Of a DNA stretch of 64,000 nt, positions 11,226 through 56,498 are shown piece after piece; position 1 is the stretch's first letter, and every line of letters starts with the position of its first letter. Below the pieces are notes generated by a model. The model saw only the letters and a list, made by a program, of their open reading frames with translations, was not told the DNA's origin and did no database searches. The DNA is taken from contig QPGO01000085.1 of NCBI GenBank assembly GCA_008632985.1, positions 248,001-312,000 of the forward strand. Direction: 5' to 3'. The position numbers and the translations under genes were made by a program. The DNA comes from Psammoneis japonica. Its lineage: Eukaryota.

Positions 11226-11430
11226 TCTGAGACAGGCACTTCACTGCAGATCATGCTGGGCTGAATGCAGAAGCTGCTAAAGTCAGAGCTTGCTCATTTT
11301 TTAATGTGTTGCTTTGGCTGCCTTGAGCAAGTGATCTGAGTCAGGCACTTTACTGCAGATCACACTGGACTGACTGCAAAAGCTGCAAAAGTTAAAGCTT
11401 GCTTGTTTTTCAACTGTGTTGCTTCAGTTG
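11226..11430. repeat. Degenerate ~110-bp tandem duplication
   Basis: ctgagacaggcacttcactgcagatcatgctgg... versus ctgagtcaggcactttactgcagatcacactgg... Confidence 0.8.
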
Positions 11431-19599: not shown

Positions 19600-19830
19600 C
19601 TCTGTGCATTGATTTCCGGCACTGGTCGGAGCCAAGCGACAGCAAGGGGACTGCGGCAAGGACAACACTGCGAGTGCAAACTCCAACAACATCTCGAACA
19701 AGCGATTTGCCACCACCTGCAGGTCGGACCAGCAGATGAGGTCTGGCAGAACATTTGCAAGAAGACTCAATTGAGCTGGACCCAACCGCGGTCTGCCAAC
19801 CATGTGGATGCTTGCCAAAGACGTCGACAG
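19600..19830 (-). pseudogene. RecQ-like SF2 helicase N-terminal fragment
   Basis: LLVRPAGGGKSLV (motif I, PTGGGKS-like) and VPLLSLGSDQ (motif Ia), preceded by PHGWQ (Q-motif-like). Confidence 0.65.
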
Positions 19831-21426
19831 ACACAGTGTCGAAAGCTTGGGAGGCACAGGTCGAAAATGGGTTGTGGCCCGCTGTGGTGCAAGCAGTGGC
19901 ATGCACTGTGGAGCATGAGTGAAAATGGCGTGAGATGGTGCAACAGCACTGTTGGCATTTTTGGCACACAACAGCAATGCATGATGCGTGTGTCATCAAC
20001 TGATGGACCGGGCGCAGCAGGAAAGGCACCGGGGGTGCCATCCGCCGCAGCGTTGGTCATTGCGTTGGTGTTGGTGATGGAACAAGTGGCAGGCGCTGCG
20101 CAGCCACAGAAAAAAGGTGTCAGTTGGTGCCAAACAATTTCGTCAGTGTCAGGCCAATGAGAGACAAAGCAACACAATCACCTGTTGCGCCAGTCGGGTC
20201 AGGAAAGGTTCCGGGTGTGGCAGCTGCGGGAAAGGCAGAAGTGGCGTTGTCATTCATGCCAGAAGCTTCAGCAGGCGGTGGAGCTGAAAAAACAGAGTGT
20301 CAGCAAATGAGGTGTCATTTCGGAAGCAACAGGGCTGCGACGGCAATTTCAACAACGTCACCTGTTGCAGTGGGGCAAATGTCATCAGCACCGTCGGTCA
20401 CTTCTTCATCAGAAGTGGGAGGGGACGAACATTCTGAAAGCATCATGGTGAGGTTGTTGTGCCGCGTGCTTTTTTCGCGGTAAAGAGATGGCTGAAAACT
20501 GGTCAATTGGTGGGGTCCCTTCGAGGCGGCTCGAGATTTAGGGGAGAGCATGGTTCGGGATTTTTCCTGCAACTATCAGCATTTGTGTACAAATGTAATT
20601 GTCTTTACATTTATACAAATATAAAAATGCCATGACGTGAGCATACATCACCATGACATCACCAACCATACTCTCCACTGACGCAGGGGTGGCCTGCGCG
20701 CAGCTGCCAGTCTTGGGCGCCAGAAGCACATGCGGCAATGTTTCATAAGAATCCGGTACTGATTCGTGAAAGCCACGACACGACTGAAGGCAGAAATCGC
20801 CGCAAAACGCAAGTCACACGTCACAAAGTGTCGCTAATGTGTCCTAGAGACATAGATTACGATTAGAATGTGTCTTCTCTACATGAGTTGCGTAGAACGA
20901 AAACTCCTTTCTTCGGAGGAACTTGTGAAGTCAGAAACTGTGCGCACTGACGGTCGAAGTGCATCAGGGGTGTCAAAAGTAGAATTCTACACAGTCAGTA
21001 TGGAGTGAGGCACGAAAACCCCAGCTCAGTGAACCTAACACGTCATTTATTTAGGGCAGATGTCTCGTCACACGCAAGAAGGCTGCCGACGATGCCAAAA
21101 TCGCCCATAAGTGACAAACAGCTGCACCAGCTGACGCAAAATTATGAGCCAATCAAAACACGCCGAACTGAATTTGCGCTGAATGGATGGCCGTCAGCAT
21201 TTTACGATTAACGTGTAGAATCCTACCACGTACGAGACCTATTGCCTATTTATCCGAGTGTTTCTGACACCAGCGAACACTGCCGGAAGTTTCTCCTCTG
21301 CCGTCGTACATTGCTGCGGGAAAATAGTAGGTCGGCCACCTCAGCCACTGAAAGCAGACTGGAAGACACCATTCTGCTCACAAAAAGAGTTGACACATCA
21401 TCCATCACAAATTTCTCCGCAAAACA

Positions 21427-31614: not shown

Positions 31615-32946
31615 ATGAGCGAGTCAAAATTATCAAGAAGGATTCGTAATGCCACGTACTTTCCTTTGATCCTCTTGGTGGCACTAACAGCACTCTTTGC
31701 GTCCATGTCGAACCTTCGTCCTTACAGTCCGTCACTCCATACAGATACTACAGCTGTGACTGGAACGCAACAAGATTTCACACAGAGAATAACATACTCA
31801 TCATCAGAATCGATACCAACACCATGTGACCAAAACGGCGTTGATTTCATGAGGCTGCCGCCACCGAAATTCCAACAGAATGAGAAGTACACCGAGGTCA
31901 TTCCCAAGTGCCTCTCCAATCAACACGACTTTCGTCGCAACGCAACCAGGATTATTCCCTTTTCCGAAAGCACCGTGGATGGATCCACGGTCGTTTCACA
32001 AATTCGCCAAAACATTACGGCAGCTATTTGCTTTTTGGACAAGAAGCTAACCAACAATTTCTTTCACTTTCCGCACGCCATGCAAACCATCTTTCCGTGC
32101 TGGTCCTTTTTCCGACGTGTCCAGCGTATTGCCAACGACCGACCCATCAAAATTGGCTTTTGGCTCGGTAGAGATGATATAAACTTTTACGAACAGGACA
32201 AGAAAAGCCATACTTGGACCATTGATCTTGTCCAAAGAATGGGGGCGTGTCAGATGAAACCAAGACAAGATCGGAACTATGAATGGCAGGATCCCAAGAA
32301 CATCACGTATGCTTATGTTCATCATCAGAGCACGAATGACCATTTGTTGTTGTACAGAATGCCAAAGTATGAGAAATCGCTTGGATTCGATGGTGGCCCT
32401 TGCGATCAAGAAATGCTTCGTCGTCGAATCCTCGGAGAAGAGTTTCTGTCCACACAGCAAGCACAATCGAACCGATCATTATCCATTGGCATCATCAACC
32501 GCAATACAACTCGTCGAATTGCCAACATTGTGGAGCTTAAAGAGCGGCTTGAACGCGAGTATCCGCAAGCCAACATTGATGTTTCGTTCATGGAAGACAT
32601 GTCTTTTATACAACAAGCAGAGTATTGGGCCAGTCACAACGTCGTTATTGCTGGACATGGCGCTGCGATGACAAATACCGTCTTCATGTCATCAGAATCA
32701 TCGCTGCTGATCGAGCTGTTTCCACCCAAACTAAAAAATACAATGTATGCCAAACTTGCAAGAGACAGTGGCATTACAAGAAAGGAATGGCGCACGCCGG
32801 TGGCGTTCGACGACAATGTCACGGCAATGATGAACACCAGGACACTTGAAGGTCGCAAACAAGCGCGTGCAATGGATTTGACCCCAGATATTGATCAGAT
32901 TCTGCGTATGATCCGAAGGAACATTCGTTGGTTTCGATATGATTGA
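31615..32946 (+). CDS. GT61-family glycosyltransferase (type II membrane)
   Basis: N-terminal TM; IGIINRNTTRRIAN...FMEDMSFIQQ...VVIAGHGAAMTNTVFM...LIELFP (GT61 HGAGLTN-type motif). Confidence 0.85.
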   Translation: MSESKLSRRIRNATYFPLILLVALTALFASMSNLRPYSPSLHTDTTAVTGTQQDFTQRITYSSSESIPTPCDQNGVDFMRLPPPKFQQNEKYTEVIPKCLSNQHDFRRNATRIIPFSESTVDGSTVVSQIRQNITAAICFLDKKLTNNFFHFPHAMQTIFPCWSFFRRVQRIANDRPIKIGFWLGRDDINFYEQDKKSHTWTIDLVQRMGACQMKPRQDRNYEWQDPKNITYAYVHHQSTNDHLLLYRMPKYEKSLGFDGGPCDQEMLRRRILGEEFLSTQQAQSNRSLSIGIINRNTTRRIANIVELKERLEREYPQANIDVSFMEDMSFIQQAEYWASHNVVIAGHGAAMTNTVFMSSESSLLIELFPPKLKNTMYAKLARDSGITRKEWRTPVAFDDNVTAMMNTRTLEGRKQARAMDLTPDIDQILRMIRRNIRWFRYD

Positions 32947-33449
32947 ACTTTTTGTTTTCACGCGTACAACTCAACCATTGAACACGCAACAGAGCACCGA
33001 TTTCAGCTATCCACACATAGATTAGAACACCCTAACTGACACTCTAGCTGCCTCATCAGTTCGACATTCTGCATTACCTTTTCCGTACGTTTATGCCGGG
33101 GGGTACAAAAATACAGTGGGGGTTGCGAGTTATTACGACCACACAAACAGGTGCGTTTCATTGGACAGCGTGACTTGCGGCGATGCGTTAATTGACATGT
33201 TGTCTATAACTAGCATCGTTTAAAAATTTGTGTGCATGTTCTTTTGTTATTCTTGCTTGATGCAGGCTTTTATGGACTTTTCAAATTGGAAACCGAATGG
33301 AAAAAAGTCTGGAAGAAAGGAGAACTCAAAGCTGCAAGCACATTTCAAAACATGGAATCAGAGTTGACAAGAGCAAATGAGGCTGGGCTCAGTTGCTGGT
33401 GTCAAGCCAACAAACACAATCTTTATTTGCCTGAAGATGCCCAGAAATC

Positions 33450-36240
33450 CAAGTGAACAATTTGTTTGCAATGCATTGTCTTTCCACATCTGGTTTCACA
33501 AGACTGGGTGCTGCAACAACTGTGCTGGCTCACCATGTGTTTTTGGGATCCAAGAAATCATGCAGACGTTCACACAAGTCGCAAGTTGAAAGATGCATTG
33601 TTCCACAACACAGAACCCAAAAACAACAGTTTCTGCAACAATCTCAACTGCATGCCAGGTTCAAAAAGGGATGTGAAAATGCCTTGGCCAGGGCAACTGA
33701 TGCATCCGCAGAACCTTCCGGCAACTGAAATTTGAAGTCGAGTGCATCAAAGCTGGTGCAGCCTGATCTTGAGTGGAGCTCCTTCAGAAGAAGCATGCCC
33801 TTGGTGCTGTGGTCATTTGGAATCATGACAACTCATTTTTTACCTTCAACAGTGCACAGAAAGTTGAAGAGGTCAGCGTCAAAGTGTGCAGAGTGTGAGT
33901 GCCCTTTGTGGCAAGCCAGATCCTCGACCAACCAAAGAAACCATGATCTTTTTTCTGCTGCTTTTCCTTGAAGGGGGCATGATTGCTGCAACCAAGTTCA
34001 CTGTTTGTCATGATTTGTTGGATGCTCTTGTTCACTTCTGTGCCAACTTCCTGGAACAGGTCCTTTTCCATGTCCACATCTTCAATGCGGAGCACTTGCA
34101 GTCTGTGCTGTGTCCAGCCTCAGTGCTGCTGGCAATGGATTGCTTTAGATTTGTTGCTGCTGCAGGGGTCTCATTTGAAACAAGCCCCTTGTGAGCCAGA
34201 AAAACCACAATCAATCTCAAGATCTCTGCCTTCTCCAAGGCCTTTCCCAAGGCCTTCTCTGGGGCTTTCAAAGTGCAAGAGGCCAAAGCACTGAAAATCA
34301 TGGACCTGTGTGAGCCACAGCCACTTCACATTTGTGAACATTTTGTTGGAAGAAAACCAGCCACTGACAAGTTTTTTGCCAGCAAACGGTCCCTGCTCTG
34401 CATTGCAGGGCCTCTTTGGATGTTGAAAAATGTTTTTTTCCCTTGTGGCTTGCGTGTGCTGTGCTTGCCACAAGAACAAGAAAATTCCCTTTGTTGTTTG
34501 CAGAGTGGCCCATCCATGCTAAATCTTCCATTTTCCTGTCAATGGTCTCAAGAGCTCCAACCATTTCCTAAAGAAGTGGAGCTGCACAGTGTGCACTTGC
34601 TTGAGAATGCAGTTTTTGCTGCTTCTGATGACTCCAAGGACAAATGCAACCTGGTCGTTCATGACAGAGCAAGACAGGCCAACAAAGATTCCATGAAATG
34701 ACTGGCTTTCTCAATGGAAGAGTGGGCCAATGTGGCTTCAAACCTGTTGACGTAACATCCTCAGCTTTTTGAATCAGAGGTGGCAGTGTTCTGTTCAAAC
34801 ATGGCAAGAAAGACTGTCTCAATTCTTGGGAGACACCGGACAAACACACCAAGGTGATCATGAAGTTTCAGGAGAACAAGGTGCTCCCTCCATTGTTGGG
34901 CACGGCCACATGAGAGCACCACAATCATTGCACACCAGAAGATGAACTTGTGACACATGCCTTTTGATGGCCAATCTGGAGATTTGAACAAAGGTGATGT
35001 TGCTGCTTTTGTCAAGGAGAAATGCCATTTTGCTGGTGGGTCTGCTCAAATTGGCACTTGTGCTTGAACGCAGCACCCAGGAATTGAAGAAAGAGCTGAA
35101 AGACTTGCTTGGTGGCCTCAAGAAAGAGCTGTGGAAAGCCTTGACAAACAACAGTGTTCCAAGATGAGCTGATGACACCACAAGAAATTCATTGATGCAA
35201 TGGCTTGGAGATGACCGCGGTGTTGCAGTCGATGCTGTCAGTGAGTTTGTTGCCATGGCTGCACATGCAAAGAAGGGGCATGAGCTTGCCAATGCAATGA
35301 GCATGGTTGCAAATGCCACAGGGGACTTGGCTCTAAAAAGATGGGTGTTTGAACTCAAACAACTTGAGGAGATCAAAAAAGGATTTCAATGGTGGTGTGG
35401 TTGTGTCTCTGCACTGCAACAATGATGATGGTGTTTTCTGCCAACCAACTCATCAAGTTTGCTGCAATGATGATGAGAAGATCCTTGACGGTGAGGTCAA
35501 TGAGAGCAACTTGACAACAATGTTTTGCTGGAAGTGGAATCAAGATTGTTTTGATGTTGCCATGTGCAGCAACAGGACCCCAGTCACTGTCCAATTCACC
35601 ACATCTTCAAAGCACTCCATCAAATTTCATCGCACGAGGGAGTCAAGGAAAGCACATGAGGTGGAGACAGGGCTCTCAAGGCAGACACAAATTTTTGTGT
35701 TGGCATCAGCAATGAGGGCAACAAGATCTGTTGGGATCCAAAGTCAGGACATGGAGCGTCACACTGTGGTGACAAGGGCTGTGAGACATGTCTTTGCTCT
35801 TCATTTCCGTTGGTCGTGGGTGACATGCAGATGATCCTTGTGCGGCAAGCCCAAAAGGAGAACAACTTTCACCCCAACAAAGACTCTGGAGAAATGGTCA
35901 CAATGCACCACAAAAAGCGAAAGCACCAAGATGCATGATCTCATGTTCAAAATTTCAAAGTGGCTGTGACGCCTCTTTTGCGCCAAGGCAAGCTGCACAG
36001 TCGCGCGGAAAAACCAGCCACATTGTCATGGCAATGATGAACACCAGGACACTGGAAAGACACAAACAGGCATGTGCAATGGATTTGACCCCAAATGTTG
36101 ATCAGATTCTCCGCATGATCTGAAGAAACATCCGTTGATTTCGATTTGATTGGACTTGTGTGTTTTTTCAAGTGTTTTGACTCAACGACTTGTTGAACAC
36201 GGGCCACATGCAATGCAGCGCCAATGATGTCAAGGACTTT
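33450..36240. other. Hypermutated domain 2
   Basis: Near absence of TpA and strong CpG depletion; TA returns at ~36250 (ttagattagaattccctaac). Confidence 0.9.
34270..35700 (+). pseudogene. Decayed Crinkler (CRN)-type NTPase + restriction-endonuclease-like gene
   Basis: LHICEHF (~LYIRE), CIAGP.. broken P-loop at ~34400, VKEKCHFAGGSAQ at 35011-35049 (~KYYFAGGSAR), KWNQDCFDVAM...TVQFTTSSKHSIKF (~KWNQGxxD...QxT...HSLK). Confidence 0.7.
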
Positions 36241-36300
36241 CAGACCACACTTAGATTAGAATTCCCTAACTGTCACTCTAACTGCCTCAACAGTTCAAAC
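36022..36300 (+). pseudogene. Duplicated 3' end and 3' UTR of the GT61 gene (copy of ~32815-33065)
   Basis: AMMNTRTLERHKQACAMDLTPNVDQILRMI* versus AMMNTRTLEGRKQARAMDLTPDIDQILRMIRR; UTR similarity continues to ctgcctca. Confidence 0.92.
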
Positions 36301-39839: not shown

Positions 39840-40479
39840 AGGAAATTGCAGCAAAAAAAAAAAAAAAACAGAATCTTTCTTAATTGCCTTATTAGAAATC
39901 AAGTCTTGTAGTATTGCGTTGCGTTCTCCCCTTAGGTATGTGCGGAGCCCTCTAAGGAAAACGAAACTACGCTGATCTCTGACTTATGAGTAGACCTTAC
40001 AAAATACCAACCCCTCGTAGACTTTAGCTACGCAACTTGATCGCAGTAGCTCATACTCTTCTGGCTCGTTTTAGCGCACAAGTCACACGAAGAGATACCG
40101 CATACTGTAGACAATGGCCGCTAAACCTAAGACCGATTTCGTTTCATATTCATTACTCTACAGCTTTACTTTAGAATTTTATAACCAATACAAGACCATA
40201 ATTGGACGCGTGATCTTGCCATTTAGAATCCACAATAAACAAAATGGTGTTGCTGATATCGCCAATGCCTTGAACAGCAGCTTCTCTTTCGCCACGGCAA
40301 CTTTGTCAAGTTCGTCCACAAGTCGCCTTCGCTCTGCCATCGCTGAGCAGCTACCGTAGTCACCACCAGGGCTCAAGTTGTAGTGAATGATAACATAACC
40401 AACACCTACAGAACAAGCTACATGCAGCACTCTTCGCCTCCCATCCGCCCTCCTTTAGTTGCACGCAACGCGAAGGAGC

Positions 40480-40895
40480 ATGCTTTGATAACTCTCTTTA
40501 TGTTATTGGTCATCACGTAAAACCAAGCTACGGAAATTTTCTCTCGCCGAAGTCTACTGCGGAAACACCTGTTGCGTGTTGGCAGGTGAGACGGATGGCA
40601 AAAACGACGACGTTGTGATCAAGCTGTGTCATTCTGGGGCCATTCCATCCGTCGTTCAATGTATGGCTAAATTCATGCTTTATTTATGAGGCTGTGCAAG
40701 CTTTCGGCTCTTGCGTTACTCTGACGTCTGATAGCGAGCAAGAAGGAAATGAAAAGGATTGTCGATGCAGCCCGCCAGTGCTGCCAACGCCTTGTCTGTG
40801 CTTGTCCGCGCCAAGGATAATTTCAAAAACAGTACAAAAAAAGCATCAGGAAGAACACCACGAACTGCATCAAAATTTTGAATGAGAACAGAATG
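40480..40895 (+). pseudogene. Frameshifted fragment of the same ARM-like family
   Basis: gctgccaacgccttgtctgtgcttgtccgcgccaaggataatttc...tgcatcaaaattttgaatgagaac matches 39730-39839. Confidence 0.75.
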
Positions 40896-41329
40896 AGGAC
40901 TGAGGACTGATGACTCCTTCTCCAACAGCATGCGGTGACCACTGCACTGCATTCTCTCATTGATGTCCGCTGACCCTGTGGAAAGACCTTACGTAGGCGA
41001 CTCCCGAGTTGCGCCTTACAAATCGCCATCTCCTCGAGTATGCTGCTCATACTCTTTCGTTGAGTAGCCCGTTCCAGTTCTATTCGCTCTTCTTATCCTG
41101 TGCGAGCTAGCTTGATCCTTCAAGAATGGTTGGCGCACGACCAACAACAAACCGCTCCGCTAAACTACCATGAATCGTAGTCAATGTCATCGGCGTCCTT
41201 TGTAGTCTCGTTGGTCTGCGCAATACATCGAGATGTAACAGGAATTGAGATGACATTGAAGCAGATCCGCATATAAGCAGCATACCCAGATCACAGCTGG
41301 TGAATTGACATTAGGTGCCGTCGTTCGTT

Positions 41330-42262
41330 TCAACTGTGCCTTGAGCGTGCAACGTTCTCATCCAGAAAGGCAGCAAGTGCTTCGAGGCCTTGCACAGAGT
41401 TGGTGGCAATCGGGTGGTAGTTTTGAACGCTCTCGCCACTTTCCATGGATTGACACTCAGAGTGGCTAGGGTTGATTCGAATCAAAGTATCGCCTCGAGA
41501 GGAGTCCGCTAGCCTCTCTGCCTTGTATCGGATTGACGGCACGACTGTGCCTGCTCCAATTTCCAAGACGATCCACGTTTGGTTTAGCGTTAAAAACTTG
41601 TCGAGTCGCTTCTGTTGTTCGGAAAAGCGAGAGTACAGCAGTGTATCGTCCCCAAATATCATCACGTTTGGACGTAAACAGCGCTTGCTGCATTTGGGAC
41701 ACATTGGTACCCAACTCGTGTCTGCCTGCAGTCGATCAAGATGATCTAGTGTCTTGTACAACTCTGTCGAGCAAGGCCCAGCGCACTGGAGAAAGGCGAG
41801 AGAGCCATGAATCTCCTGAATGTTTACATCGTCATCATTGGCAAGGTCGCCCCGTAAATGCAGTCCATCACAGTTGGATGTAATTACAAATGTTTTGGAC
41901 GGCCCAAAGTGATCCATGATTCGGTCAAGTGCTTTGTAGTCGTCGCCTCGTTCAACAAGAGCTCTCAAGATGCGCCAACGCCAGTACTGCCAAGCCTCTT
42001 TCATGGTTTCGTTTCGAAACATTTCAGGAACAGAAAACGAAAACCAATCGTCCGCGGGTGGAAGACCAGCGCTACGACGTGCTCTGTTGTAATTTTCGAG
42101 AAACGACTGGAATTCCGCCGACATGCTTCCATCGGACATGCGAAAGACTGGCACTCCTGAGTTTACTGACATTCCTGCACCAGTCAACACGAGTAGACCG
42201 TGGCCATTTTGGTAGGCAGACAAGAGTACCTCGCAGGCTTCTTTCAAGGCGGGATCTGTCAT
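41330..42262 (-). CDS. Sirtuin (SIR2-family NAD-dependent deacylase)
   Basis: LTGAGMSVNSGVPVFR, ITSNCDGLH, EIHGSL..LQC...C, P.CPKC...LRPNVMIFGD, LEIGAG, IRINP. Confidence 0.95.
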   Translation of the reverse strand: MTDPALKEACEVLLSAYQNGHGLLVLTGAGMSVNSGVPVFRMSDGSMSAEFQSFLENYNRARRSAGLPPADDWFSFSVPEMFRNETMKEAWQYWRWRILRALVERGDDYKALDRIMDHFGPSKTFVITSNCDGLHLRGDLANDDDVNIQEIHGSLAFLQCAGPCSTELYKTLDHLDRLQADTSWVPMCPKCSKRCLRPNVMIFGDDTLLYSRFSEQQKRLDKFLTLNQTWIVLEIGAGTVVPSIRYKAERLADSSRGDTLIRINPSHSECQSMESGESVQNYHPIATNSVQGLEALAAFLDENVARSRHS

Positions 42263-42477
42263 GGTCGGAGTCGGTGTCGACCGCGAACGCGACTCACTTT
42301 GTGGGGGTTTGGTGAGCGCTGGAAAGTGGAAAGACGACGACTCGACGTCTTTTGCACACGCACGGCGTACGGCAAAATTGCACTGACAACCCCCCCCCCC
42401 CCCAATGCACTGACAGGCAGACTTTTTTCAGCTGGCAGCTGGCCGCGGCTGGAGACATCCTCCCCCAGTGTGTTGGG

Positions 42478-43080
42478 GTGTTTCTCCAGTGTGCCAATGT
42501 TTTCTGCCAAGTTTCCATGCAAGTTTCAGTGCAAATTCTACATGTTGCAAAAATCATTTCTGGTGGCTGACCTCCCAATCTCCCAGCTGCTCTCCGCTCG
42601 CATCTGCCAAGCTGCGGTGTTGCCCCTCTTTTCACTGTCTTTTCAAGTTTTCTCTGCTTTGTGTGGTGAACAACCTTTTTTCGTCACCACTCCCAGAAGT
42701 TTGCAGAACTTGAGTGCAACTCATGCATTGGATGTTCTCCAGCATGCCAATGTTTTCTGCCAAAATTCTGCACAAGTTTCAGCGCAAATTCTGTGTGTTG
42801 CAAAAATTGTTTCTCATGTGGCCCACCTCCGCTCACATCTGTCAAGCTGCAATGACCTGCCCCTCTTCTCTGCTGTCTTTTTGAGAAGTTCTCTGCTTTG
42901 TGTGGTGAACAACTTTCTCTTTTGTTGCTGCTGCCGGAAGTTTGAACTTGAGATCAACTCGTCATTGGTGCGCAAGTTGGCTGTTCTCCCATGTGCCAAT
43001 GCTCTTTTCTGCCTGCACGCCAATTTTCCTGTCAAGTTTCTGTGCAAGTTTTGGCACAAATCCCAGAAGAGATTTTTGGC
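42478..43080. repeat. Degenerate ~250-bp subterminal-type tandem repeat (2 copies plus a partial)
   Basis: ttctccag[tg/ca]tgccaatgttttctgccaa...caaattct[acat/gtgt]gttgcaaaaat at ~42482 and ~42734, partial at ~42985. Confidence 0.8.
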
Positions 43081-44639
43081 TTTGTTCCTGTGGTTTCAGG
43101 AGCTTTGAAGGTGGCAAGTCAAAATGTGGATGCTGCCTTTTGCAGCTCCATTTCCCCAGCTGGCCCCTGTGGGTGCCACTCCTTGGTGGTGCCTGTCTTG
43201 GCTGACAACGACACATCTCTGCCACACATCACAGTGCACTGGGGGTGTGGGCTGGTTTGTTGCCCAGCTTGCTGGGTGGAAGTGTGGCAGCACAGTTCAA
43301 AACAAAAAAAAACAGATTTTGGTTTCTTTCCAGCCATGAAGGGGTGTCAGAAGGCAGGGGGGGGCATGGTGAGATGGTGGAACTCCATTTGGTTCATCAT
43401 CAAATGTTTGTTCTTTTTCTCATTCAAAGTTCAACTGTGCATGACAAAAATCTTCTTAAAATGTGTGGGTTTGGCGCAGATCAAAACAAGGCATTTTGTG
43501 ATCACAAGACTGACGACAATCTGCGCTGCTCCCAGAATGCCTGGATGGCTTCAGTCAAGCCATTTCAACAGCTTGAGAAATGGTTTGATGCATTGCAGAC
43601 AAGTGCTGTTCATTGTTGCTTGGTCCAGATCTTTGCAATGGTGGAGGGTGGACTTTGGCTTGCAAAATTGAGCACATGATGTCATGAGCGCCAGTCCTGC
43701 ACCATGCTGCATGACTTGAGTTTTCCACCATCTTTTCAGGATTGGGTGATGCAGCACTTTTGTGGCATGCATTGCTCCACTGTCAACCCAAACTGGTGAA
43801 AAGCATCTACACAGCCTGTTGCCACCAGATGCACAGACAAGCTTTTTGTTGATTGTCAGCACACAACTTGCACCCAACCACAAAATGTTCATGCTCCAAA
43901 ATTCCACCATCTTTCTGTGTCTCCTTCCTGGGTTGCACCCAAGGAACTCATCACAGAGTTGGGTGCAAGCTTCAGACAATTGAGCCACTGTCATTGTTCA
44001 CACAAGACAGTGCAGCTTCCAATGTTGATGACAGCATTGGGTGACCATTCAGCGTTGATGTCATGGTTTTTCCATGCATCAATGCAGCGGCCATGCAAGA
44101 TGAGGCAACGAAATGCTTGAGGGTGTCCAGACTGCTTTGTTCACAAAGCCAGGCAAATCCAAAACACACTCTCTCCAGAGACAAAGTTTGTCACTTTTGC
44201 TGGGGTGCACTCTCTCTTGGTCCTGCAGCTGCTCAGCTCTCTTGTTTGAACAACTTCCAAAGTGTTTTGTCGATGTGTTGATGCCTTGGTGGAAGAAATG
44301 CTGCTCAGACAGGCCGAAACTGTGCTGGTGGCAAACCAGATTGACAGGTGTGGCAGAGAGGGCATTGGCATTTGGATGATGGCAAGCTGGCCATCAGTGG
44401 TTGTGTGTTGCAGCATGTCCATGTTCACCACTCTCAATCCACACTCTTTTTTCTTTTCAGCTGCATCTCATCTTTTGTTTCTTCTTCAGTTTTGTTGGTG
44501 TTTGGCTCATCTTTTGTTTCTTCTTTTTTTTTAATTTTGTGCACTGACTGTTTGGCTTTCTGTGGCCACTCATGCAGATCTTAACTGAGATGATGCAATG
44601 TTGCTGTTTCAGGGTTGTCTGATGTGCGATGTTTTGATG

Positions 44640-44880
44640 CAATGTTGCTTCCTGGGTTGTTGCTGTCTGAGCTGTTGCTTGCTGAGCTTCCTTCTCTGCA
44701 GCACAGTTTGCAAGCCCTGTTGCTTCCTGAGCTGTTGCTTCTTAGTCATCACTTCCTGAGCTGTTGCTTCCTGAACTCCCTTCTTCACAACAAGGTTCAT
44801 GAGCCCTGTTCCTTCCTGAGCTGTTGCTTCCTGAGTCATTGCTTTCTGAGCTGTTTCTTCCTGAAGAGCTGTTGCTGCAG
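44640..44880. repeat. Degenerate minisatellite (ctgagctgttgcttc units)
   Basis: Recurrent ctgagctgttgcttc; minus strand reads as QEATAQE repeats. Confidence 0.8.
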
Positions 44881-47800
44881 TGCACTTCACAATCTTTTTG
44901 GGTGCCCTTTGATGGAGCCCTGGGCAGAGACAAGACACATGCAAATGCAAAGATGAGCCACAAACATCCAGAATGTCCATGCACATTGTTGACAAAGTGG
45001 TGGGCAACAACAAATTGCTGGACTGACACAGAGCTGAACCATGCACACTGGGCACCTTCCACAACAATGGAAGCAGCCACAACAAAGTTAAGGAGGGAGA
45101 GACAAAGCTTCTTGTTCAAGCAAGAAGTCTCATTGCTGTCATGCTTTTTCCCTTTTTGTGACTTCAAATGTTCACTTGCCTTCCTTGTGGCTTGTGGGAT
45201 TTTGCATGTCTCAGAGTTTTGTGCTCCCCAACCATGCAAAAATCACAATGAGATGACAGGATGCAATTGCAACCACACAGTGTGACACCTCATTTGCACC
45301 TGAATCTTTTATGTTAGATTTTGCCTTGACAATGAAAACCTTCACTTCATGTGAGCATTTGTTTCAAGACTTGTGCCTGCTGCAATGACCAATGTTGTGC
45401 ATCTGATGGTCTCTCACAACTTTGCAACACAGTGGTTTTTGAATTTTTGCTGCATGCATGGTGTGACACTTGCGCACAATGTGAGGTTGCACCGTGCAAT
45501 GCCAGTGTCTCATTTGAGACTTCAAGCACCAACACAGCCAACAGGGCTCCAGCAAAACCAAGCAAAGTCAGTTGTGCTGCACAACAATTGACTGCCACAC
45601 TAAAGCTGCCAGCTCAAGTTGAAGAGAAAAGATGCTTCAACTGCTTGTGGTCACACTTGCACTGCAGTCATGGCAACAACATGCATGCATGCACAACCAC
45701 AAAAACAGCATTTCTGAAGCTGTGCACCAGGGCTGTGTGGACTTCTCATGTGGAAGTGAACCCCGCCATTGTGTGCAAGATGATGAGCTCACCATGGCTC
45801 CATTGTTGCCCACTGTGCTGTGCCTTCAATGGCAGCTTGAGCAAGAGCAACAGACTCTTCTTTCTTTGCTTTAGATGGTCAATGCTTGGCTTTGACAAAG
45901 AGGCAAGCAGCTTGGTCATTTGGCAACAATGCCAGCTGTGGCTTCAAATGGCGTGCACCACATTTGTTTGTCACACTGTCTTGACTCTTCCTGCCACAAT
46001 CCATCTGAGAAACAAAGCAGCCAAAAACTCTGCAAGCACTGCCAGCAGCAACTCCCTTTTGTTGCCGCTTTGCAGATCAGACAAGTGCCTTGAGATGGAA
46101 CTTCAAATGGTGTGCTTGTCTGCACATGGTCACCTTTGTCTTTGAATCATCTCTCAAGTTTGCAGTGTCCATGGAGACTCTGCCACCTCTTTGTCCTCTG
46201 TGTGGCAGCAAACACACTTCTGTGCATGACAGCTGCTGGTGCAGACCCATCATGTGGCAGCATGAGCTTGCTTCAGTGACTCTGCTTTTGTCAGCCACAG
46301 CAGCACCTTGCAGAGTGGCTTGCACGAGAACAAAAAAAATCATTTGCTTTCTTGCACTTGAACATGCAGCACTTGTCTGCAATGTGGAAGTGTGTCAGCA
46401 CAGCAGCCCCTCAAGGAAAAGTGGGCTGCTGCAAGAACTGCTGGACATGTGCAAAAATCTGTTGCTTGTGTTTTGCTTGCTTGCTGCTCATTTGACTTTC
46501 AGCAGCAACATTGTTGATTCTTTCTCAATGTCATCTTGAGTTGAGTTTCAAGAGAGCTTCTGAAGCAAGCACACACAAGATGACAAGTTTGATGATCCCC
46601 TTTCTGTTGCTTGGATGAACAACGTTTGATTTTGAGGCTGGGCAGCAACTTTGATGTGGAATGCTTGGAGCTTTTGGCAGCTCAGCGCCAAATGCAAGCA
46701 TTTCAAACCAATGCACAAAGGCATGTGTCTTTTCCTGCTCAAACAACTGTGGCATTTTTGATGATCACAGATGGAAGGTGGCAGAGCACTCGTGCTTTAG
46801 GAAACAAGCTTGCACCTCTGACGCAGAGTGAACATGCTTTTGCAGCTCTGTGAGCCACAGATGGCAAGTGCTTTGAGTTTTAAACTCCAACAGTGTGTTT
46901 GTCTGCACATTGCCTTCTTTGCACTCAAAAAATTCCCCTCTTCAAGCTCATTGCCATGAGAAATCTGTTGCTCACAACACCCAAGACACCCAACATGCAC
47001 AACATGATGCACAACTTGCACCAGCACTTTGCAACACTCTCATTGGCAGCAGCATGGTTGCTCAGGATGTCATCATTCACAAGGCAAGCAGGCATCCCAG
47101 CATGCATTTTGCCACTCTTGTTTGCTCACTTTTGCTTTTCCTGGTTCTTCACAGACTTGCTGATGCTCTCCATCTCTGTGCGCCTGTCACAATTTCTTGA
47201 AGTTCTGTGGAGTGCATGACAAGTCTTGGCCACTTCTGCACAGATGGCATGCTGGCACTGTTTCTTTTTTTCAACTTGGCACCAACTCGCACTTGTGCTG
47301 AGAACTCTCCACAGTGAGGGCTGACTTGAGCCAATTTCCATTTGACAAAACTTGCCTCCAAGCCTGACGTGACTTTGTGATGCTGCCTTCATGCTGACCC
47401 ACTGCCCTTTGGCACCTCTTGGTTGCTCTTTCACAGAGCTGATGTTTGGAGCAAGACTTCTTGACTTGCTGGAAAAGCCCCTTTGCATTCAGCAAAACTC
47501 TGGCAAAAAGAAGCACAGTGTCCAGCTGTTGTTGAGGAGGGCAGGCAGGCAGCAGCTTGCTTGTTCTTTTTTGCATTGCAAGCCCCAGTGTGACTTGCTT
47601 TTGGCAATGCAAACCCCAACATGCTTCTTCAGCAATTGGTTGTAATGTCAGAGTGGCTGTTTGTGCACACATGTGCTTGCACATGGCTGCTCACACATGC
47701 TTCCCTTGCATTGTCTGCAGTGGTCAAGGCCATCTTGCTGCTCTCTGACTTCTGCCACACACTGGCTGGCAGAAATTTCTTTAGATCACACCAATGGAAG

Positions 47801-48699
47801 GGTTGGCAAGAAGCACTGCCACAGCAAAAACACACCATGGGGCTGCTGTTTTGCATCAAAGTGCTGCAACAAAAATTTCTTTACACCACAGCTGTGCAGA
47901 ACCCAGCACACTCTGACGAATGACAAGACATGTGGCCAGATGCATCTGACAAGAGAATTTTGGATTTGACCATCCACAAATGTGTTGGTCATGGGTGTCA
48001 TTTTGTCATGATGCTGAAAAACAAAAACAAGCTCAGGAGTGTGTGTCATGTGCACAGATGTGCTGCCTGCAATGGCCCTCTGGGGAGCACATGCAAGGAG
48101 GCACAGCATGATGATCTTGACAGTGCAAACAGTCATTCCTTGAGCAGCACATGTGAGGTGCATTCAAAAGCTGTGTCACAAAGTCAGGTTGTGAGCTGTG
48201 TGCAGTGAGTCCACATGCAGCTGTGCACAAAATGACCAAGAAAAAGAAGTGTTGCATTGTGCAGAGCATGCTCAACATTGTGGGGGCATGTCAACACAAT
48301 GACCCAAAAAAGAGCAGCTGCATTGTGCAGAGCATGTCCAACACTCTGTGGGGGCATGTCAAATTGGTCAAGTCACCACCAAATTGGCTGACCACACATT
48401 GACTGAGCACACATGTTGTCTCTGACCTCCTCTTAAAGTTTGGCACAAGGGCAGGAGACAGAGAAACAAACTGCACAATGAGCACTGAGGCGCACCAGCA
48501 AAAACAAACTTTCAATGCAAACAGGCATCAGTTTGCCAGCACACAGGGCATCTCACCCACACAAAGAAAAGTGCAAGGAGCACCATTGGCAAAGAAATCT
48601 CTCCAAGAAAGAAGGCACACTCACACATGCATGCAGCATCTGTTGCTTGGATCTTGGGCAAAAAAATGTGCACATGGCAAGCATGCCCAGCAGTCATCT

Positions 48700-49835
48700 G
48701 GTGAGATTGGTTTCATTTCACACTTTTCAAAATTTGCAGGGTTCATCACTTAAATTGCAGGAGTGTGCCAGGTTGCATGGGATGCAATGACAGCACACCA
48801 AGCAGCATGATTTGGCGTTGGCATTGCGGTGCACAATCCTTGTCCACTGACCATGGGAGCACTGTTGACAATGAAGTCAAGAACTCTCTCAACTGACATG
48901 CATGAATGAGAAAAAAATTCACAGCTGAACCTGCAGGCAGCAACCATCCTCTGGCTTTGATGCCAAAAAAGTGCCGCGCAACTTCTTGTGGATCTTCTTG
49001 TGCCGCTGCACAACATTGCACTCCCACCTGTGTTTTGGTGCAGTGTGTGTGGGCACTGGCAGCAGTTTTCAACACAAAGCAGATGCTGTGTTCAAACTCA
49101 ACTAACTTCAAAGGTTTTGTCATCACTTGTGACAGGTTCCAAAGATGCAAAGACAAGTGCCCACCATGTCTTTGCTCCAGATGATTGAAAAGCAGATCAA
49201 GGAAAGTTTTGAAAATGTTCCTTCCTCTCGCATTGTCAAGCCCACCCTCTGACAAGCCATGTGTGTAGGTTGTGAGTCCAAAAAACAGGGTTTTGACCAA
49301 TTTCTGGCACAAAAATCACGTGAAAAATTCATGCAGAACATCTTGTTTGCAGCGCTTTTCCCATGCTTTGTAAAAAAAAACAGATCACAGCCTCAAAGAA
49401 TCAATTTCAGCCACACAACGGCTGACACTTTGCACACTTGCTTTTGACAACAGACATGACAATGTCTGCCATTTGTCAAAATTGCACCATCATTGGAAAA
49501 TGCTTGCTGCAGTGGGCCACAATGACACGTCGATCAAATTTCTGAAAATGGAGTTTTGACATGTTCGTGCACAGAATTGCGCTGCTTGTGCACAAGTCAT
49601 CATGCAAAGTGTCAAGATTGGTTTCCTTTTACACTTTTCAAATTTGGCATTCTCCTTCACTTAAATTGCAGGAGTGTGGCAGGTTGCATGGGGTGCAATG
49701 ACAGCGCATTGAACAGCATGATTTGACATTGGTGTCGCAGTGCATGACGATCCCTTGTCCACTGACTGGCAGAGCACTGTCGATGAACTTCTCGACTCAC
49801 TCGACTGACACGCACGAATGAGAGAAAAATCAACA
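48700..49835. repeat. Two ~220-bp diverged direct repeats (48700-48920, 49612-49835)
   Basis: gattggtttc..acacttttcaaa...cacttaaattgcaggagtgtg.caggttgcatgg...tgtccactgac...gaatgaga.aaaa in both. Confidence 0.8.
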
Positions 49836-49915
49836 GATGCGAACTTGAAACTGGAACATCGAACATCATCACTCTAGTTGGAAACACCATCGACGCATGT
49901 GACACATTTTGTTGC

Positions 49916-50910
49916 ATGTCTTCAACATTGCCACTCCTCCTGACCTCCAAGCAAGCATGTCCCGACGAAACACATCTCAACATGAACCCCACAGAAGTGA
50001 ATCCTCATGGCAGCCAAAAGCATGATTTCGATGCCCTGGACGACATTGAGGATTTCACAGATCAAGTCGCAGATGCATGCCGGTGCGAGAAGGTGCGGGC
50101 TGATGATGTCATGCCCCCGGTGGATCCATCCTTCGTCGGCAGCTGCAACACACAACAGTCGGAACGTGTCTCTTCAAGTTTTCCTGCCAGCAAAAATGTG
50201 ACAGAATCGACCATTTCGGACGATCATCGGCACGATTCCTCTGATCCCACCAGAGTCGGTCCTGCGCAAGATCATGCTTTGCTTGATGCGGATCTCAAGT
50301 GCATTGACAAATCCACCTTCTGCATCGAGCAACAAGGAGAACATTTCGCCCAATTCCTCTTCTCCAAGAGGTTCATCCTGCTGGTCAACAAGTCGAGAGC
50401 ATCGAGGAGCCAAAATTTTCACCGAGCAAAGATGATCGCATCCACGTTGACGGAGAGCCATCAATGAATGACATCATTGTGGGAAGAGGTGGTGGGACCA
50501 ATCTCCATCAAGGCAATGGGAAGCTTCGTGGCATGCTTGTGAACCACAAAGGTGACTGCTCTTGCCTTCGGAAAGAAAAGGGGCAAAAAGAAAAGAAAAC
50601 CGACCTGGGCCACAAGATTGTTGATGAGATCGTAGATGCGACAGGGCCCTTTGTGAAGAAGGAAGCAATCTTTGAGGAAGAACCAACCACCAAGGTGGCA
50701 ACAACAGATGGGTGCTGCCATCTGACAGGACAAAACTTGAAGACGCTGCCGAAAGCAGCCAAGAAGCCTTCCAAGAACAAGTCGGCTAAGAAGAAGATGA
50801 TCACGAAGCCAATCGCCCATCGCTGTTACCTTTTGACGAGATCGGAAGCAAGGAAGAAGGTTTGGCAAGCAATGAGAGACCTGGAAGATCTCAAATGGAC
50901 CACCTGTTGA
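49916..50910 (+). pseudogene. DUF6824-domain gene, disrupted and TpA-depleted
   Basis: NDIIVGRGGGTNLHQGNGKLRGMLV...KKTDLGHKIVDEIV...GPFVKK...EARKKVWQAMRD fits the diatom DxxxGRG...HxGN...KxxQAxRD pattern; break at ~50465. Confidence 0.75.
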
Positions 50911-51442
50911 TGTGGAGTGTGAACGCACAAGCGTCCGAAAGAAAGACTCCTCTGCTTCAGTTTTTGCATTGACGTGCATGACACAACTTGGCAGCAAACA
51001 TTTTTAGACATGTTCACATTTGCATGAAATTTATCCATGTGACCTTCTCCTCTCTTCTGGTTTGCGCTTGAGACGAGACCTTCCCCTGAATCTGTGTCCA
51101 TTCCACGTTTCTCATTGTTTGATTTCAGGCCTTGCGTCTCACATTGAATTGACCTCGCACAACTTGCAGACCTCAAAATGCACGCCAAATTTGATGTGAA
51201 CATTTTAGTTTCATGTTTGGAGAATGGCATGTCGCCAGTCTTCCCTTTTTTCTGCTCATTGCGCACTGTCTCCCTGTGGGGACATGCCGAATGATTTTAG
51301 CCAGTGGCTAAAATTTTGTGTGGACACATGCCAGGTTTGTACGCTGGTGTGTTTTCCACACAGAAAATGTTTGCTGTCCTTTTTACTGACACTGCAAATG
51401 TCACATCTGTGACAGTTTGCTGCTGACCACAACGCTCGTTAA

Positions 51443-54400
51443 CGCCAATCAGGAACAAGCACCACACGTGGTGTTTCAAAAAATTGACACACCACATGTG
51501 GTGTTTCAATTTTTGATTCGGCGATTGTGTCCGATAAAATCAGGTTTAAGCCCCAAGTGACTGCATGAACGAATTCTTCGTACTCGTAAACATGCATTTC
51601 CACTCTTCGATCGTCTCCGTGTGACCTTTAGTCGTTGAGCAGTGCCTGTCGAAAGTGCGGCATTTTCGCGCAATTTTTCCGGCAAAACTGCTTCCACCAT
51701 GACGGATGAAACTGTGTCACCCGACGAGGTAGAACATTCCCTCCCACCACCTCTCTCTCCTGTTGGGATACATAGACAACAGACAAACGTTGCTGACATG
51801 TTGACAGGTGGCATTGATGTTCCCAATTCGCCCCGTGCTTTCGAGGAACAATTTCAACAAATTGCAGCCGGCATCACGGAACAAGAGCAACAAGACGTAC
51901 AAGCCGTTGTGCATCCGCCGCCGGCCAAAAAGTCAAGGAATCGTTTTTCTTATGCAAGGAAGAAGTTCCTTGGTTCCACCAAGTTGTTTGTGAAGCCTCA
52001 GCACCAACAGTTACACTCCAACCAGTTCTTTGAAGCAGTGCAGATTGAGGGCACCACAGTCGGTTGCCCGCGAAAAAAGAATGACTGGAAGTTCACAATC
52101 AAGTGGGATAACCTGTCATCTTTGCCATCAACAATGGACAAGGATCATGCACGCTGCCAGCTGCCAAATGACGTGCACACTCAAAACATGTTAAGAGAAG
52201 CAATGGCATCGTATGACGCCATGGTTTCACCCAGGACGCGCAAGGATGCGCCCGAGTCGACGCGCCAAAACACCACTCCAGTCGCCGCCCAGCCGGTCGC
52301 CGCAACGCCCGCAATGAACACTCCCCCAACAGTGGAGCGTGCTCAACGTGCAGCTGCCTTGAGAACTGCTGATTCCATTGGCTCCACCGCACACAGTCTC
52401 AGCTCAGCAAGCACTGGTGCCAGACAACCCGCTGCCGTAGAAGCAGCAGCAGCGCCACCAACCGCCACGCCAATTTTGCGAAGTGACACTTCTCAATGGG
52501 AATCCGATTCGGATGATGGCTCTGACTATGATCCATTTGACAATGCATGGACTTGGGATCCCAGTGAAGAAGCGACAGACAAGTGCTGCTATGATGACGG
52601 CGAGGAATGTGACAATGATGATGCTGATGATGATGTTGACACTGCTGACGCCACTGACGCTGCCGCCAATGATGTTGAGGATTGTTCTGACTTTGCCAAG
52701 CTGGTTGATAAATTGGTTTGGAAGTTTGCCATTTGTGAGGAAGATGTAGATTTGTTTTCCGATGATGAAGCTTCGCAACCAAATGAACTGCACTCTGGAC
52801 CGCATGGATTGAAACCAGGTGTTGCCACATCCTTCAACACACCCACAGAGGCGGCAGCAGCATGTGGTGGGCTTGACCATTTCTTTGTATCCCGATTGGC
52901 TTGCAACTCTAATGCATGCTTCAACCATTTCACAAAACCCACCCTTGGCAAGAATGGATGGCACCACAGTTTGAAATGGAAACCTGTCACTGCTGACGAA
53001 ATGTGTCATTTCCTTGGAATTGTGCTCATGACATCTTTGTCTCCCAGAGATGCTGGTGGATGCTGTGCCCATTTTGCGGAAGAAGACATTGTGTTGGAAT
53101 CCAGTGCAAGCAGGAATGGAAAGAAGAGACGCATTCCCAATTCAGCTGGCTTCGCACACAAGCACATGGACTTGCGCCGATTCAAGCAGATGCGAGGAGC
53201 CTGCCATCCCGAAGAGAAGGCGGCATCCATGGGTGGTGACAAGTGCCATCAGCTGCGCCAATCCCTCAATCAATTGAATGCAGCTTCGAGGCGCACGTTC
53301 ACACCTGGAACGCATTTGGCCTTTGACGAAGGTGGTGCAAGCTGTCACTCTCGGTTTTGTCCTGTGCAACAGCACAACAAAGACAAGCCTGATGAATGTT
53401 GTGCAGAGTTCTTTATGCTGGCGGATGCAACCAACAAATTTCTCATTCATGTTGACGTTTGTCAAGGCAAGAATGAAACCAACACCTTCATCAACGAAAA
53501 GTGCCACAATCTTCCCACGACACAGAAGGCGGCAGTGAACGCAATCATGCAGTCGGGGCTTCATGCAGCATCCGAGCATGGCTGGAGACATGTGGCACTC
53601 GACAACCGGCACCAATGTCCACAGTTGGCGGCCATTTTGCGGGACAACTGCCACATGCACAGCACAGGAACTGTTCGCACCAATCGCAAGGGTTGGAACT
53701 CCACTGTCATGAACGTTGCGGCCAAGGACAAGCGTGGTTCATTTAAGATGGCTTGTGACAAAGTGAACAAAATGCAGATTCTACAGTGGCGCGACAGCAA
53801 GGTGGTGAATTGCTGCACCTCCCTTGTCTCCACAGAGGTCAGCGAGGTTCAACGTTGAGTCGGAAGTCTCAAATTGACTGTCCCCGTGCCGCGTCTGTTG
53901 AAAACCCACCAAGAAACAATGAGTGCAGTTGACCAATCTGACCAGTCCTGTTTGCATGGTGGTGGCTTCGCAAACAAAGCCCATTTCAAGAAGTGGCACA
54001 AAAGGTGCGACTTGGGAATGAAAGATTTGATGCTTCAGCAAGGGATGGTCGGATGGAAGTTGTCTTGCAAGGAGGTGAAAGACCGGAATGACATGTTGCG
54101 ATGGGAGTTTCTGGTTTGGGTTGCGCAGGACTTCATGGAGTTCAGAAGCGCTGACAGGCTTGTTCCACATCCACCGAGCTTGTTGGCACGTGCTCGTGCA
54201 AGCCGTGCCCAAATTTCAGCGGACGATCAACACAAACCCGTCATGACAACATCGTGTCACGACGTCTGCTCTGTTTGCATGTTGGAGTCGAACTGGAACA
54301 AAAACATTGGCTTGGCGGGAGTGAAGAAGTCAGTGGCAGCCTGCACAAAATGCAGTGTCGTAGCTCACAACTTCGTCCCTCTGGACGACAAGCGACAAAC

Positions 54401-56230
54401 ACACAAACTGCCGGAGTTCGCTGGCATGACATGCTTTGAGATACGACACTCTGAGACAGGCAAGGAAATTTGGAAGATGCATGGCGATGAACGGATGGAT
54501 GAAGAAGGCAGTAAGAAGAGAAGAGCATACTCCATCGTGAGGACGCATCGTGTGGTGCGTCATCTCAAAGAGATGCACAAACAAAATCAAACTGACGAGT
54601 AATGACATAATGTAAATTCGTTTTCATGCTGCAGCATTTTCACAATTGTCTTTTCCTAATGTTGTTAATTCCTGTGGTTCTTTCCTAATGAATAAAAGCC
54701 AATTTTCTGAGAATGGGTGAAGCTCTATTCTTGTTTGAAGCCAACGTACTCGGCTTCGGGAAACCTGAGATGGATTTCGTCGTACATGCATTGAGGAAGG
54801 CGCTTGCGATTGCCTTTTCCAAGGTATCCATTAATAAGTCGGCTGGCCTCTGTGTACAACTTCCACCTGATTTCTCTGTTAGTCTTGTGGAACGTAGCCT
54901 CATACTCGCCAAGGGCAATGAGGTGATCGTTGTGCTCGACGACAACACATGGATCGGAGCCACAATGGACGCATGTCTCCGCATCCGCGTCAGTCTCGTT
55001 ATCATCTTACACAAAAAAAGGAACAGCAGCAACGTGTCAGAAAGATGCTAGTGCAAGCATGGTGCAGCNNNNNNNNNNNNNNNNNNNNNNNNNNNNNNNN
55101 NNNNNNNNNNNNNNNNNNNNNNNNNNNNNNNNNNNNNNNNNNNNNNNNNNNNNNNNNNNNNNNNNNNNNNNNNNNNNNNNNNNNNNNNNNNNNNNNNNNN
55201 NNNNNNNNNNNNNNNNNNNNNNNNNNNNNNNNNNNNNNNNNNNNNNNNNNNNNNNNNNNNNNNNNNNNNNNNNNNNNNNNNNNNNNNNNNNNNNNNNNNN
55301 NNNNNNNNNNNNNNNNNNNNNNNNNNNNNNNNNNNNNNNNNNNNNNNNNNNNNNNNNNNNNNNNNNNNNNNNNNNNNNNNNNNNNNNNNNNNNNNNNNNN
55401 NNNNNNNNNNNNNNNNNNNNNNNNNNNNNNNNNNNNNNNNNNNNNNNNNNNNNNNNNNNNNNNNNNNNNNNNNNNNNNNNNNNNNNNNNNNNNNNNNNNN
55501 NNNNNNNNNNNNNNNNNNNNNNNNNNNNNNNNNNNNNNNNNNNNNNNNNNNNNNNNNNNNNNNNNNNAAGTTTTTTCCACTTTTGCCAAAGCCAGTGGGG
55601 GCTCGTCTTCTTTTGTCTCAGAAGCATAAGGTGCGTCTTTACGAAAAAAGCAAGGGGAACGTGGTTGATGAATGATGCGAGTACAAGTGTAGTGCACAAC
55701 AACAGAAAAAGACACCTGTGAAAAGACTTACCATCATCATAAGTCTTTTCAACTTTCACCTTTTTCAGGGGACGCTCGTCTTCCAGAACATCAATGTGAT
55801 AACTCTTCGGTTCGTCTGATGTCAAAAAAGCAAAGGCAGCGGAGCATGAGAACAAAACAATCATGCAACACGCTGTTGTAACGGAATGCTTGTTGCTGCT
55901 CGAAACGGGGTATACAGCAAAAAAGAAACACTTACCAGCTCCATAAGTCCTCGGGATATTTTCCTTATTGTTGTAAGACATTGTATTGCAGGGAAATACA
56001 GTTGCTAGCGATTGCAAAGCATGAAAAAAAATGACAACAACACTTGCAACTCGCTGCCGCCTCTTGGAGGGAGTGATGTTACGTACAGGTTACCCGCGAA
56101 ATCTTGAGCTTATTTCGATTCACGAGCGGCTTAAAAGTTAGTCACGAAACCAAATATGGTGGTTCAATTTTTGGCCCAACTCCAAATATGGTGTTTAAAA
56201 TATCTTAAAACGGGTTGTTTCCGATTGGCG
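51443..56230 (+). mobile_element. piggyBac-superfamily transposon with TTAA TSD
   Basis: TTAA|CGCCAATCAGGAACAA ... TTGTTTCCGATTGGCG|TTAA; paired subterminal accaNNNNtggtg motifs at both ends; contains a gap. Confidence 0.9.
51699..54602 (+). pseudogene. piggyBac-like (DDE_Tnp_1_7) transposase with one in-frame TGA (53856-53858)
   Basis: LAFDEGG, NKDKP, VALDNRH, STGTVRTNR, QWRDSKVV, MSAVDQSDQ, KKWHKR, C-terminal CSVC...CTKC...CF Cys-rich domain; the two ORFs share one frame. Confidence 0.92.
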
Positions 56231-56498
56231 TTAATATAAAATATGTAGTTTTTAAGCGTTTAAAAATAAATACAAAAACAAAAAACTGCAAATATATAGT
56301 ATGTATATAAAAGAAAACAATGGGGTGGCGTTAAAAGGCGTTATCATTAAATATATCGTATGCCAGGTGAAATGCGTAGAATTCTACGGGAGGTTTTTAG
56401 CCACTGGCTAAATTTATTCGGGATGTCCCCATACATACCATACCCGGCCCGTTGTGTGTTGTGTGTTGTGTGTTTAGTTTTGTGTTTGCGAATCCAGA

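Follow-up and report, generated by a model that had tools for sequence, protein, structure and literature searches.

Conversion of TpA dinucleotides in a piggyBac element and its chromosomal surroundings in the diatom Psammoneis japonica

A piggyBac transposase without its conserved tyrosines

The window analysed here is a stretch of 64,000 nucleotides from the diatom Psammoneis japonica (GenBank assembly GCA_008632985.1, contig QPGO01000085.1, positions 248,001 to 312,000 of the forward strand). It carries on its + strand a piggyBac element at 51439..56234, limits that include both TTAA target-site copies (51439-51442 and 56231-56234), inserted into a miniature inverted-repeat transposable element (MITE) of ~362 bp. 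Copies of this MITE without the insert carry a single TTAA at the insertion point, and the TTAA at both ends of the element is therefore a target-site duplication. The other features of the piggyBac class are present as well: short terminal inverted repeats (I7, 20 nt, 90%), a transposase frame matching Pfam DDE_Tnp_1_7 (PF13843, E 5e-30) and the three conserved acidic (Asp) motifs, FDEGG at 53322, LDNRH at 53598 and VDQSDQ at 53928. We propose that this young copy was very probably inactivated after its insertion by a host hypermutation that turns TpA into TpG or CpA, on either strand, in defined chromosomal domains.

The transposase frame (51699..54602, +) comprises 968 codons and runs open to a terminal TAA apart from a single internal TGA at 53856, in agreement with a preliminary description of this DNA that had reported one stop and no frameshift. 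The same description traced the stop to a CGA codon, an origin that predicts what is found at this place in two sister copies described below, of which copy A reads CGA and copy B CAA. Its statement that the catalytic region is free of tyrosine also holds. Only five tyrosines are left in the frame (amino acids 85, 172, 277, 298 and 944) and there are none in the 645 residues from 299 to 943, whereas tyrosine averages 3.4% in 80 homologues, so that about 22 would be expected in this stretch (P(0) ~3e-10). On the DNA the corresponding core (52590..54527, +), which lies between the Tyr at 52590 and the Tyr at 54528, has almost no TA (0-4 per 250 bases).

The frame was aligned with the 80 homologues, and columns with Tyr in at least 70% of the rows were taken as conserved tyrosine columns. 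All 11 of these have lost the residue, nine to Cys or His, one to Phe and one to Lys, whereas columns of D, E, F, G, H, K, M, N, Q or W were lost in 8 of 102 cases (p 1e-10). The five motifs singled out earlier, QQHNKDKP, DVCQGK, LDNRHQ, KKWHKR and THQETM, are all present, and at the column in question the homologues have Tyr in 72/80, 78/80, 72/77, 66/68 and 66/69 rows, respectively. The proposal that TAY codons became TGY or CAY accounts for nine of the eleven columns but not for the remaining two, where all three copies have Phe and Lys, residues that TA conversion does not produce. Other codons converted along with those for Tyr: Ile and Val columns changed as expected from ATA and GTA (to Met, Thr and Ala), Arg columns changed as expected from CGN, and invariant Arg and Lys positions were hit as well; the first Q in QQHNKDKP is a former Arg lost through CpG decay. 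Active relatives with the same Cys or His would have contradicted the description, and at the nine columns the window residue is shared by 0-6 of 66-80 homologues. With one stop and every conserved tyrosine lost, the window copy is, judging from its predicted protein, dead. The nearest named relatives of this transposase are labelled Seminavis robusta.

Direction, timing and rate of the conversion

Two further piggyBac copies, A and B, are 95-97% identical to the window copy. They lie fused tail to tail, i.e. as inverted neighbours, on G000:C71 (L011 and L012; G000:C71:328132-337591); copy A has a truncated right inverted repeat and copy B lacks ~100 bases. Among the three copies, 174 of the 190 substituted columns are exchanges between TA, TG, CA and CG (YpR) and 16 fall outside; A/G differences after A make up three of the variable columns and transversions eight. 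Where the nine conserved tyrosines became Cys or His, the window copy and copy A disagree on which of the two at seven columns, which implies that each copy resolved an ancestral TA separately, after insertion. The left TTAA of copy B now reads TTGA, and the left flanking TA of the window's MITE now reads TG (51275-51276) while the right one is kept (56432-56433), 15 unconverted MITE copies having TA on both flanks; bases on the host side of the target were thus also hit after insertion.

The right end of the window element (55568..56234, +), which follows an assembly gap of N at 55069..55567, is largely unconverted and provides a DNA reference for its sisters. Compared with it, and with the right ends of A and B assigned across gaps by orientation, TA was converted at 18/23 sites in copy A and 16/22 in copy B, and CG at 0/21 and 0/24; TG or CA to CG is rare in this comparison, as is TA to CG in comparisons of the MITE. 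Over the rest of the element 21-30 of 189 CG sites were lost per copy, CG being ancestral where the homologues are informative. Divergence other than YpR amounts to only 11-12 differences in ~3600 bases between copies. Rough hazards are 1.3-1.5 per TA, 0.12-0.17 per CG and 0.0015 per ordinary site, which places the per-base rate at ~500-fold the background for TA and ~45-fold for CG, as orders of magnitude that rest on the 11-12 background differences. By these comparisons the window copy is young and was converted after its insertion.

The preliminary description had favoured a mutational burst over slow decay. Conversion was indeed far faster than ordinary decay, although it is better described as a short period of very high rate than as a single event, since A and B share conversions that are absent from the window copy (split 19:4:8, p=0.003) and each has its own besides. 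This sharing suggests a common history, such as a local hop, or gene conversion. The lack of indels that the description had stressed is correct for the window's frame, but this intactness mostly reflects youth: the four indel events that separate the three copies all lie outside that frame, and indels are indeed present in the sisters.

Ordinary slow decay, or a functional family with Cys or His in place of Tyr, would be compatible with an open frame and with the three retained acidic motifs. Either is scarcely credible given a TA loss of 73-78% at the sister right ends against a background divergence of 0.3%, copies that disagree between Cys and His, and hits at invariant Arg and Lys positions. 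In the diatom P. tricornutum, mutation-accumulation lines are described as having a GC-to-AT bias, with CG, CC and TG mutagenic (PMC6604790).

A sequencing or assembly artefact has just as little to recommend it. The search for reads listed no RNA run, and its one strong DNA run (X1) may be what the assembly was made from, so that X1 is not biologically independent and some room is left for an artefact. But separately assembled X1 contigs are identical to the window over 40001-42402 and over 42390-43333, beyond the edge of the domain, and metagenome assemblies unrelated to this one bear the signature too. Where X1 contigs and the window do differ, 428 of the 519 places are transitions.

Conversion follows chromosomal position

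The TA-stripped domain as a whole extends over about 42500..54500, holds most of the piggyBac element and shows CpG loss too in ~43000-49000. Its right border falls inside mobile DNA. In the left half of the MITE (51277..51442, +) 18 of 23 TA sites are now TG or CA, whereas the right half (56231..56431, +) is unconverted and retains 23 of 29. TA is retained both at the right end of piggyBac and in the MITE's right half; conversion tracks position and not the identity of the element.

Twenty of the 22 MITE loci (L032-L053) were scored, two partial ones being excluded. They are bimodal, 15 retaining 42-51 TA and five retaining 3-8, and both 1-kb flanks have a TA observed/expected ratio of at most 0.12 in exactly the five converted copies; two pairs among the 15 TA-rich copies share flanks and may be allelic. 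It counts against our interpretation that the converted copies also have more ordinary differences (3.6-15%), so that age contributes to the bimodality. This confound is removed for the window's MITE, where the halves of one and the same copy differ. Conversion is, from the distribution of the retained TA, a property of the chromosomal domain and not of piggyBac.

To what extent the genome is marked was estimated from 38 arbitrary 10-kb stretches, mostly from large contigs, which gave 378 1-kb windows after two had been dropped for N. The histogram of rho(TA) has a clear gap and 177 of the 378 windows lie below 0.2. Among the TA-poor windows 108 are CG-depleted too and 30 have kept CG, and a single window is CG-poor but not TA-poor. 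About half of the sampled genome, as measured by rho(TA), carries the TA-stripping mark.

Pairing between homologous repeat copies could also set the targets, as in repeat-induced point mutation (RIP) but with reversed chemistry. The domains are repeat-rich, TA is scarce at each of the 14 piggyBac-like loci checked, and the inverted neighbours A and B share conversions, all of which would suit such pairing. It is nevertheless quite improbable: the right end of the window element escaped conversion despite its 95-97% identity to two other copies, and a single MITE differs between its halves, even if 362 bp may be too short for RIP-like pairing. A further patch at 33300-36100 is converted and no second copy of it was found, with the reservation that converted copies could lie below detection. 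This patch is 2.8 kb long, stripped of CG too, without a Pfam match, and has a 76% direct repeat on either side (32813-33062 / 36020-36296).

Left of the MITE, the TA-stripped flank at 49841..51276 (+) holds a frame of DUF6824, a diatom gene family (Pfam; Atlas), and has 7 TA and 57 CG in 1436 bases. The Atlas clusters are dominated by Bacillariophyta (0.91-0.92). DUF6824, these clusters and the named transposase relatives place the host among the diatoms; two protein searches with host genes gave no match. No second copy of this flank was seen among the 40 matches listed (40/56 candidates scored), and the pairwise comparison of DUF6824 was too weak for a Tyr change to be visible. A scan of 92 open frames in stripped patches against Pfam found DDE_3 and DUF6824 only. 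The DDE_3 match is a Tc1/mariner-type relic (14791-15213, -) in another TA-stripped patch (10900-20400), which is rich in dispersed repeat matches and contains an inverted repeat of 655 bp (18586-19239 / 19891-20542, 86%). The short repeat at 49400-49625 has ~40 listed genome matches at 74-79% and is possibly another MITE that could serve to polarise changes. A further boundary within an element was observed at L123:3653-4162 compared with G000:C3, one repeat end being converted, with a run of eight TG outcomes, and the other intact.

Sequence context and strand behaviour

Over 18 alignments 584 TA sites could be polarised, of which 233 became TG, 224 became CA and 127 survived. With the MITE left out, the strand reading TAY was preferred as the edited one (108:41), and TA survived at 37/84 YTAR, 50/199 mixed and 9/91 RTAY sites, counts in which some sites are reused across related copies. 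Neighbouring outcomes agreed in 212 of 439 cases against a null of 219 +/- 11, so that hits look independent; one of the 18 alignments was strand-skewed (5:19). Strand-coordinated, processive editing of the kind seen in APOBEC-like kataegis found no support in this agreement, nor did an ADAR-like UAG preference in the 3' base, G standing at 0.34 against 0.50-0.52 for T and C.

Among the chemistries that could produce this pattern, an error-prone polymerase of the Pol eta type might copy the domains and insert G opposite T. In its favour, the A-to-G changes of Pol eta fall at WA motifs, with TA ahead of AA. We regard it as unlikely, since A/G differences after A and transversions are as few as noted above, and patch synthesis predicts strand-coordinated runs where the observed agreement stays at the null.

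Modification of a base at TpA, followed by mispairing or deamination, would leave the domains and the outcome unchanged; the modified base could be an oxidised thymine made by a TET/JBP-type enzyme, or N6-methyladenine. The strict dinucleotide specificity on both strands without strand runs would suit a site-specific modifying enzyme, and the TAY rule can equally be read as 5'-R-T-A on thymine. We know of no such TpA mark in diatoms. The genome has 27 matches to C5-methyltransferases (PF00145), seemingly many for a diatom, with five of them nearly full-length and with a cluster on C297, and diatoms carry the RID-related DNMT4, reported as of unknown function (PMC9998398). We rate a modified base as possible but clearly the lesser prospect.

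A candidate host mechanism

In the process that we propose, A:T to G:C conversion takes place at TpA within the domains, to which a slower CpG loss is confined as well; one hit would suffice for each TA, which would then no longer be a target. The domains would correspond to silenced, repeat-rich chromatin, in which the slower loss of CpG may come from deamination of 5-methylcytosine, DNMT5 being reported to methylate diatom transposons (PMC9998398); the effect would be a defence against mobile DNA that damages neighbouring sequences collaterally. The chemistry could be that of a TadA/ADAT-type deaminase recruited to silent chromatin, adenine being turned into inosine and copied as G. We hold this enzyme assignment to be nearly an even call, and our best guess places it ahead of a modified T or A and of an error-prone polymerase. 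It is in keeping with the report that TadA-derived adenine base editors, which change A to G on DNA, prefer a pyrimidine 5' of the A (YA; bioRxiv 10.1101/2024.11.19.623682), these being engineered enzymes that offer a resemblance only. The genome encodes an ADAT2-like protein with HAE, PCxxC and GCRNDRFGGCGS motifs.

Several points weigh against this interpretation. To our knowledge ADAT2 occurs in every eukaryote, and the ADAT2-like gene does not discriminate. TA being palindromic, A-to-G and T-to-C chemistry would leave the same trace and cannot be separated by sequence, and the context counts carry the reuse of sites already mentioned. Matches to deaminase families number nine for PF00383, four for PF02137 and five for PF14437; we take them to be a dCMP deaminase, an organellar TadA, ADAT2, RibD, two guanine-deaminase-like proteins, ADAT1 and one more of ADAR/ADAT1 type, which by motif reading presumably amounts to a housekeeping set. 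None of these matches was recognised as a dedicated deaminase, and no frame that was seen carried an evident chromatin domain. Finally, engineered TadA is reported to edit CA too (bioRxiv 10.1101/2024.11.19.623682), whereas TG or CA to CG is rare here.

Two genes of deaminase type on G000:C79 are recorded in their own right. One is a second A_deamin gene (ADAR/ADAT1-type; L071/L072, G000:C79:344558-345390), besides one on C40. In the other (L065:313-1785, -), what we take to be a deaminase domain is followed in one open frame by an apparent 2-oxoglutarate/Fe(II) oxygenase domain. Deaminase-tudor proteins of stramenopiles have been listed as predicted RNA editors (PMC3239186).

The same signature in environmental sequences

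Public homologues spanning at least four of the conserved Tyr columns numbered 194, and 11 of them have Cys or His at half or more. No own-genome locus fetched is more than 61% identical to any of these 11; despite 94% identity to P0075, the protein P0108 reads Cys or His at 6 of its 9 Tyr. Loci of such Cys/His-rich homologues are themselves TA-stripped and so provide no counterexample to the tyrosine conversion inferred in the preliminary description.

Among metagenome loci, 12 of 80 contain a window with rho(TA) below 0.2 (27/439 windows). All 12 come from two record series, maybe of one campaign, and were counted as one further source. Pairs of metagenome copies, some of them reused between pairs, gave a TAY preference of 75:13 and survival of 81/88 at YTAR. 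By these counts the TA-stripped loci in microbial-mat metagenome contigs share both the signature and the context rule. Their hosts are probably diatoms: DUF6824 adjoins locus L175, and the Atlas lead for the neighbour at L192 is 0.87. L192 (~3000-9000) holds a Tyr-free piggyBac in a 6-kb TA-stripped patch flanked by unconverted host genes, with the same anatomy as the window. No TA depletion was seen at homologue loci from other data sets, so not every host of this piggyBac family has the process.

Relation to known systems and meaning

RIP in ascomycetes likewise kills transposons by dense transitions at a particular dinucleotide and reaches into neighbouring sequence, but it turns CpA into TpA and follows duplicated sequence. 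The process here is not RIP, since its direction is the exact reverse, TpA falling and CpA and TpG rising, and the limits cut through duplicated sequence: a duplicated right end is unconverted and apparently single-copy DNA is converted. CpG decay of the DNMT5 type (PMC9998398) would account for the slower loss of CG to TG or CA; it cannot remove TA, which in the right-end comparison was lost with CG intact (TA 34/45, CG 0/45).

The closest precedent is the TpA hypermutation of integrated viral DNA in Bigelowiella natans, measured in mutation-accumulation lines (Mettrop et al., bioRxiv 10.64898/2026.01.13.699255). It too converts TpA to TpG or CpA on both strands, regionally and on foreign or mobile DNA; DDE and reverse transcriptase (RT) genes are enriched among TA-poor genes there, and ADAT2 was proposed. 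B. natans is a rhizarian in which the process was measured directly, with a local rate of ~1000-fold, active in only some lines, and 124 clusters; in the diatom it is deduced from copies, at a relative rate of ~500-fold per base, and touches 177 of 378 sampled windows. The main text on B. natans, in the portion available, has no mention of 'diatom', 'CpG' or 'flank' and reports no coupled CpG loss, nor was a TAY rule seen in it; the supplements may bear on context. In the literature searched, from whose coverage subscription papers mostly fall outside, no diatom report of TpA conversion was found. What we describe is a type of hypermutation that was reported only recently, here in a new lineage, on a far larger scale and with a second, environmental source, which suggests that the signature is not peculiar to one strain.

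A wider proposal, which we consider possible while leaning against it, is that in several diatom lineages a dedicated defence edits DNA adenines under the guidance of chromatin, in effect RIP reversed and with a preference for TAY. It would have rewritten about half of this genome and spread position-wise, past the limits of elements, into adjoining host genes; its enzyme, a natural adenine editor of double-stranded DNA, would be held in common with Bigelowiella, and the system would then be old and SAR-wide. Natural A-to-G editors of genomic DNA are, as far as we know, nearly without example, and the adenine base editors used in the laboratory were obtained by evolving them. The speed and specificity of the conversion point to an enzyme behind it. 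This locus, with its three copies, its internal boundary and a split MITE that serves as its own control, is a clean test bed. A further consequence is that in such diatoms the dating of transposons and annotation are distorted, as are statistics on dinucleotides or codons: a young copy looks old, and roughly half of the sampled DNA has been rewritten.

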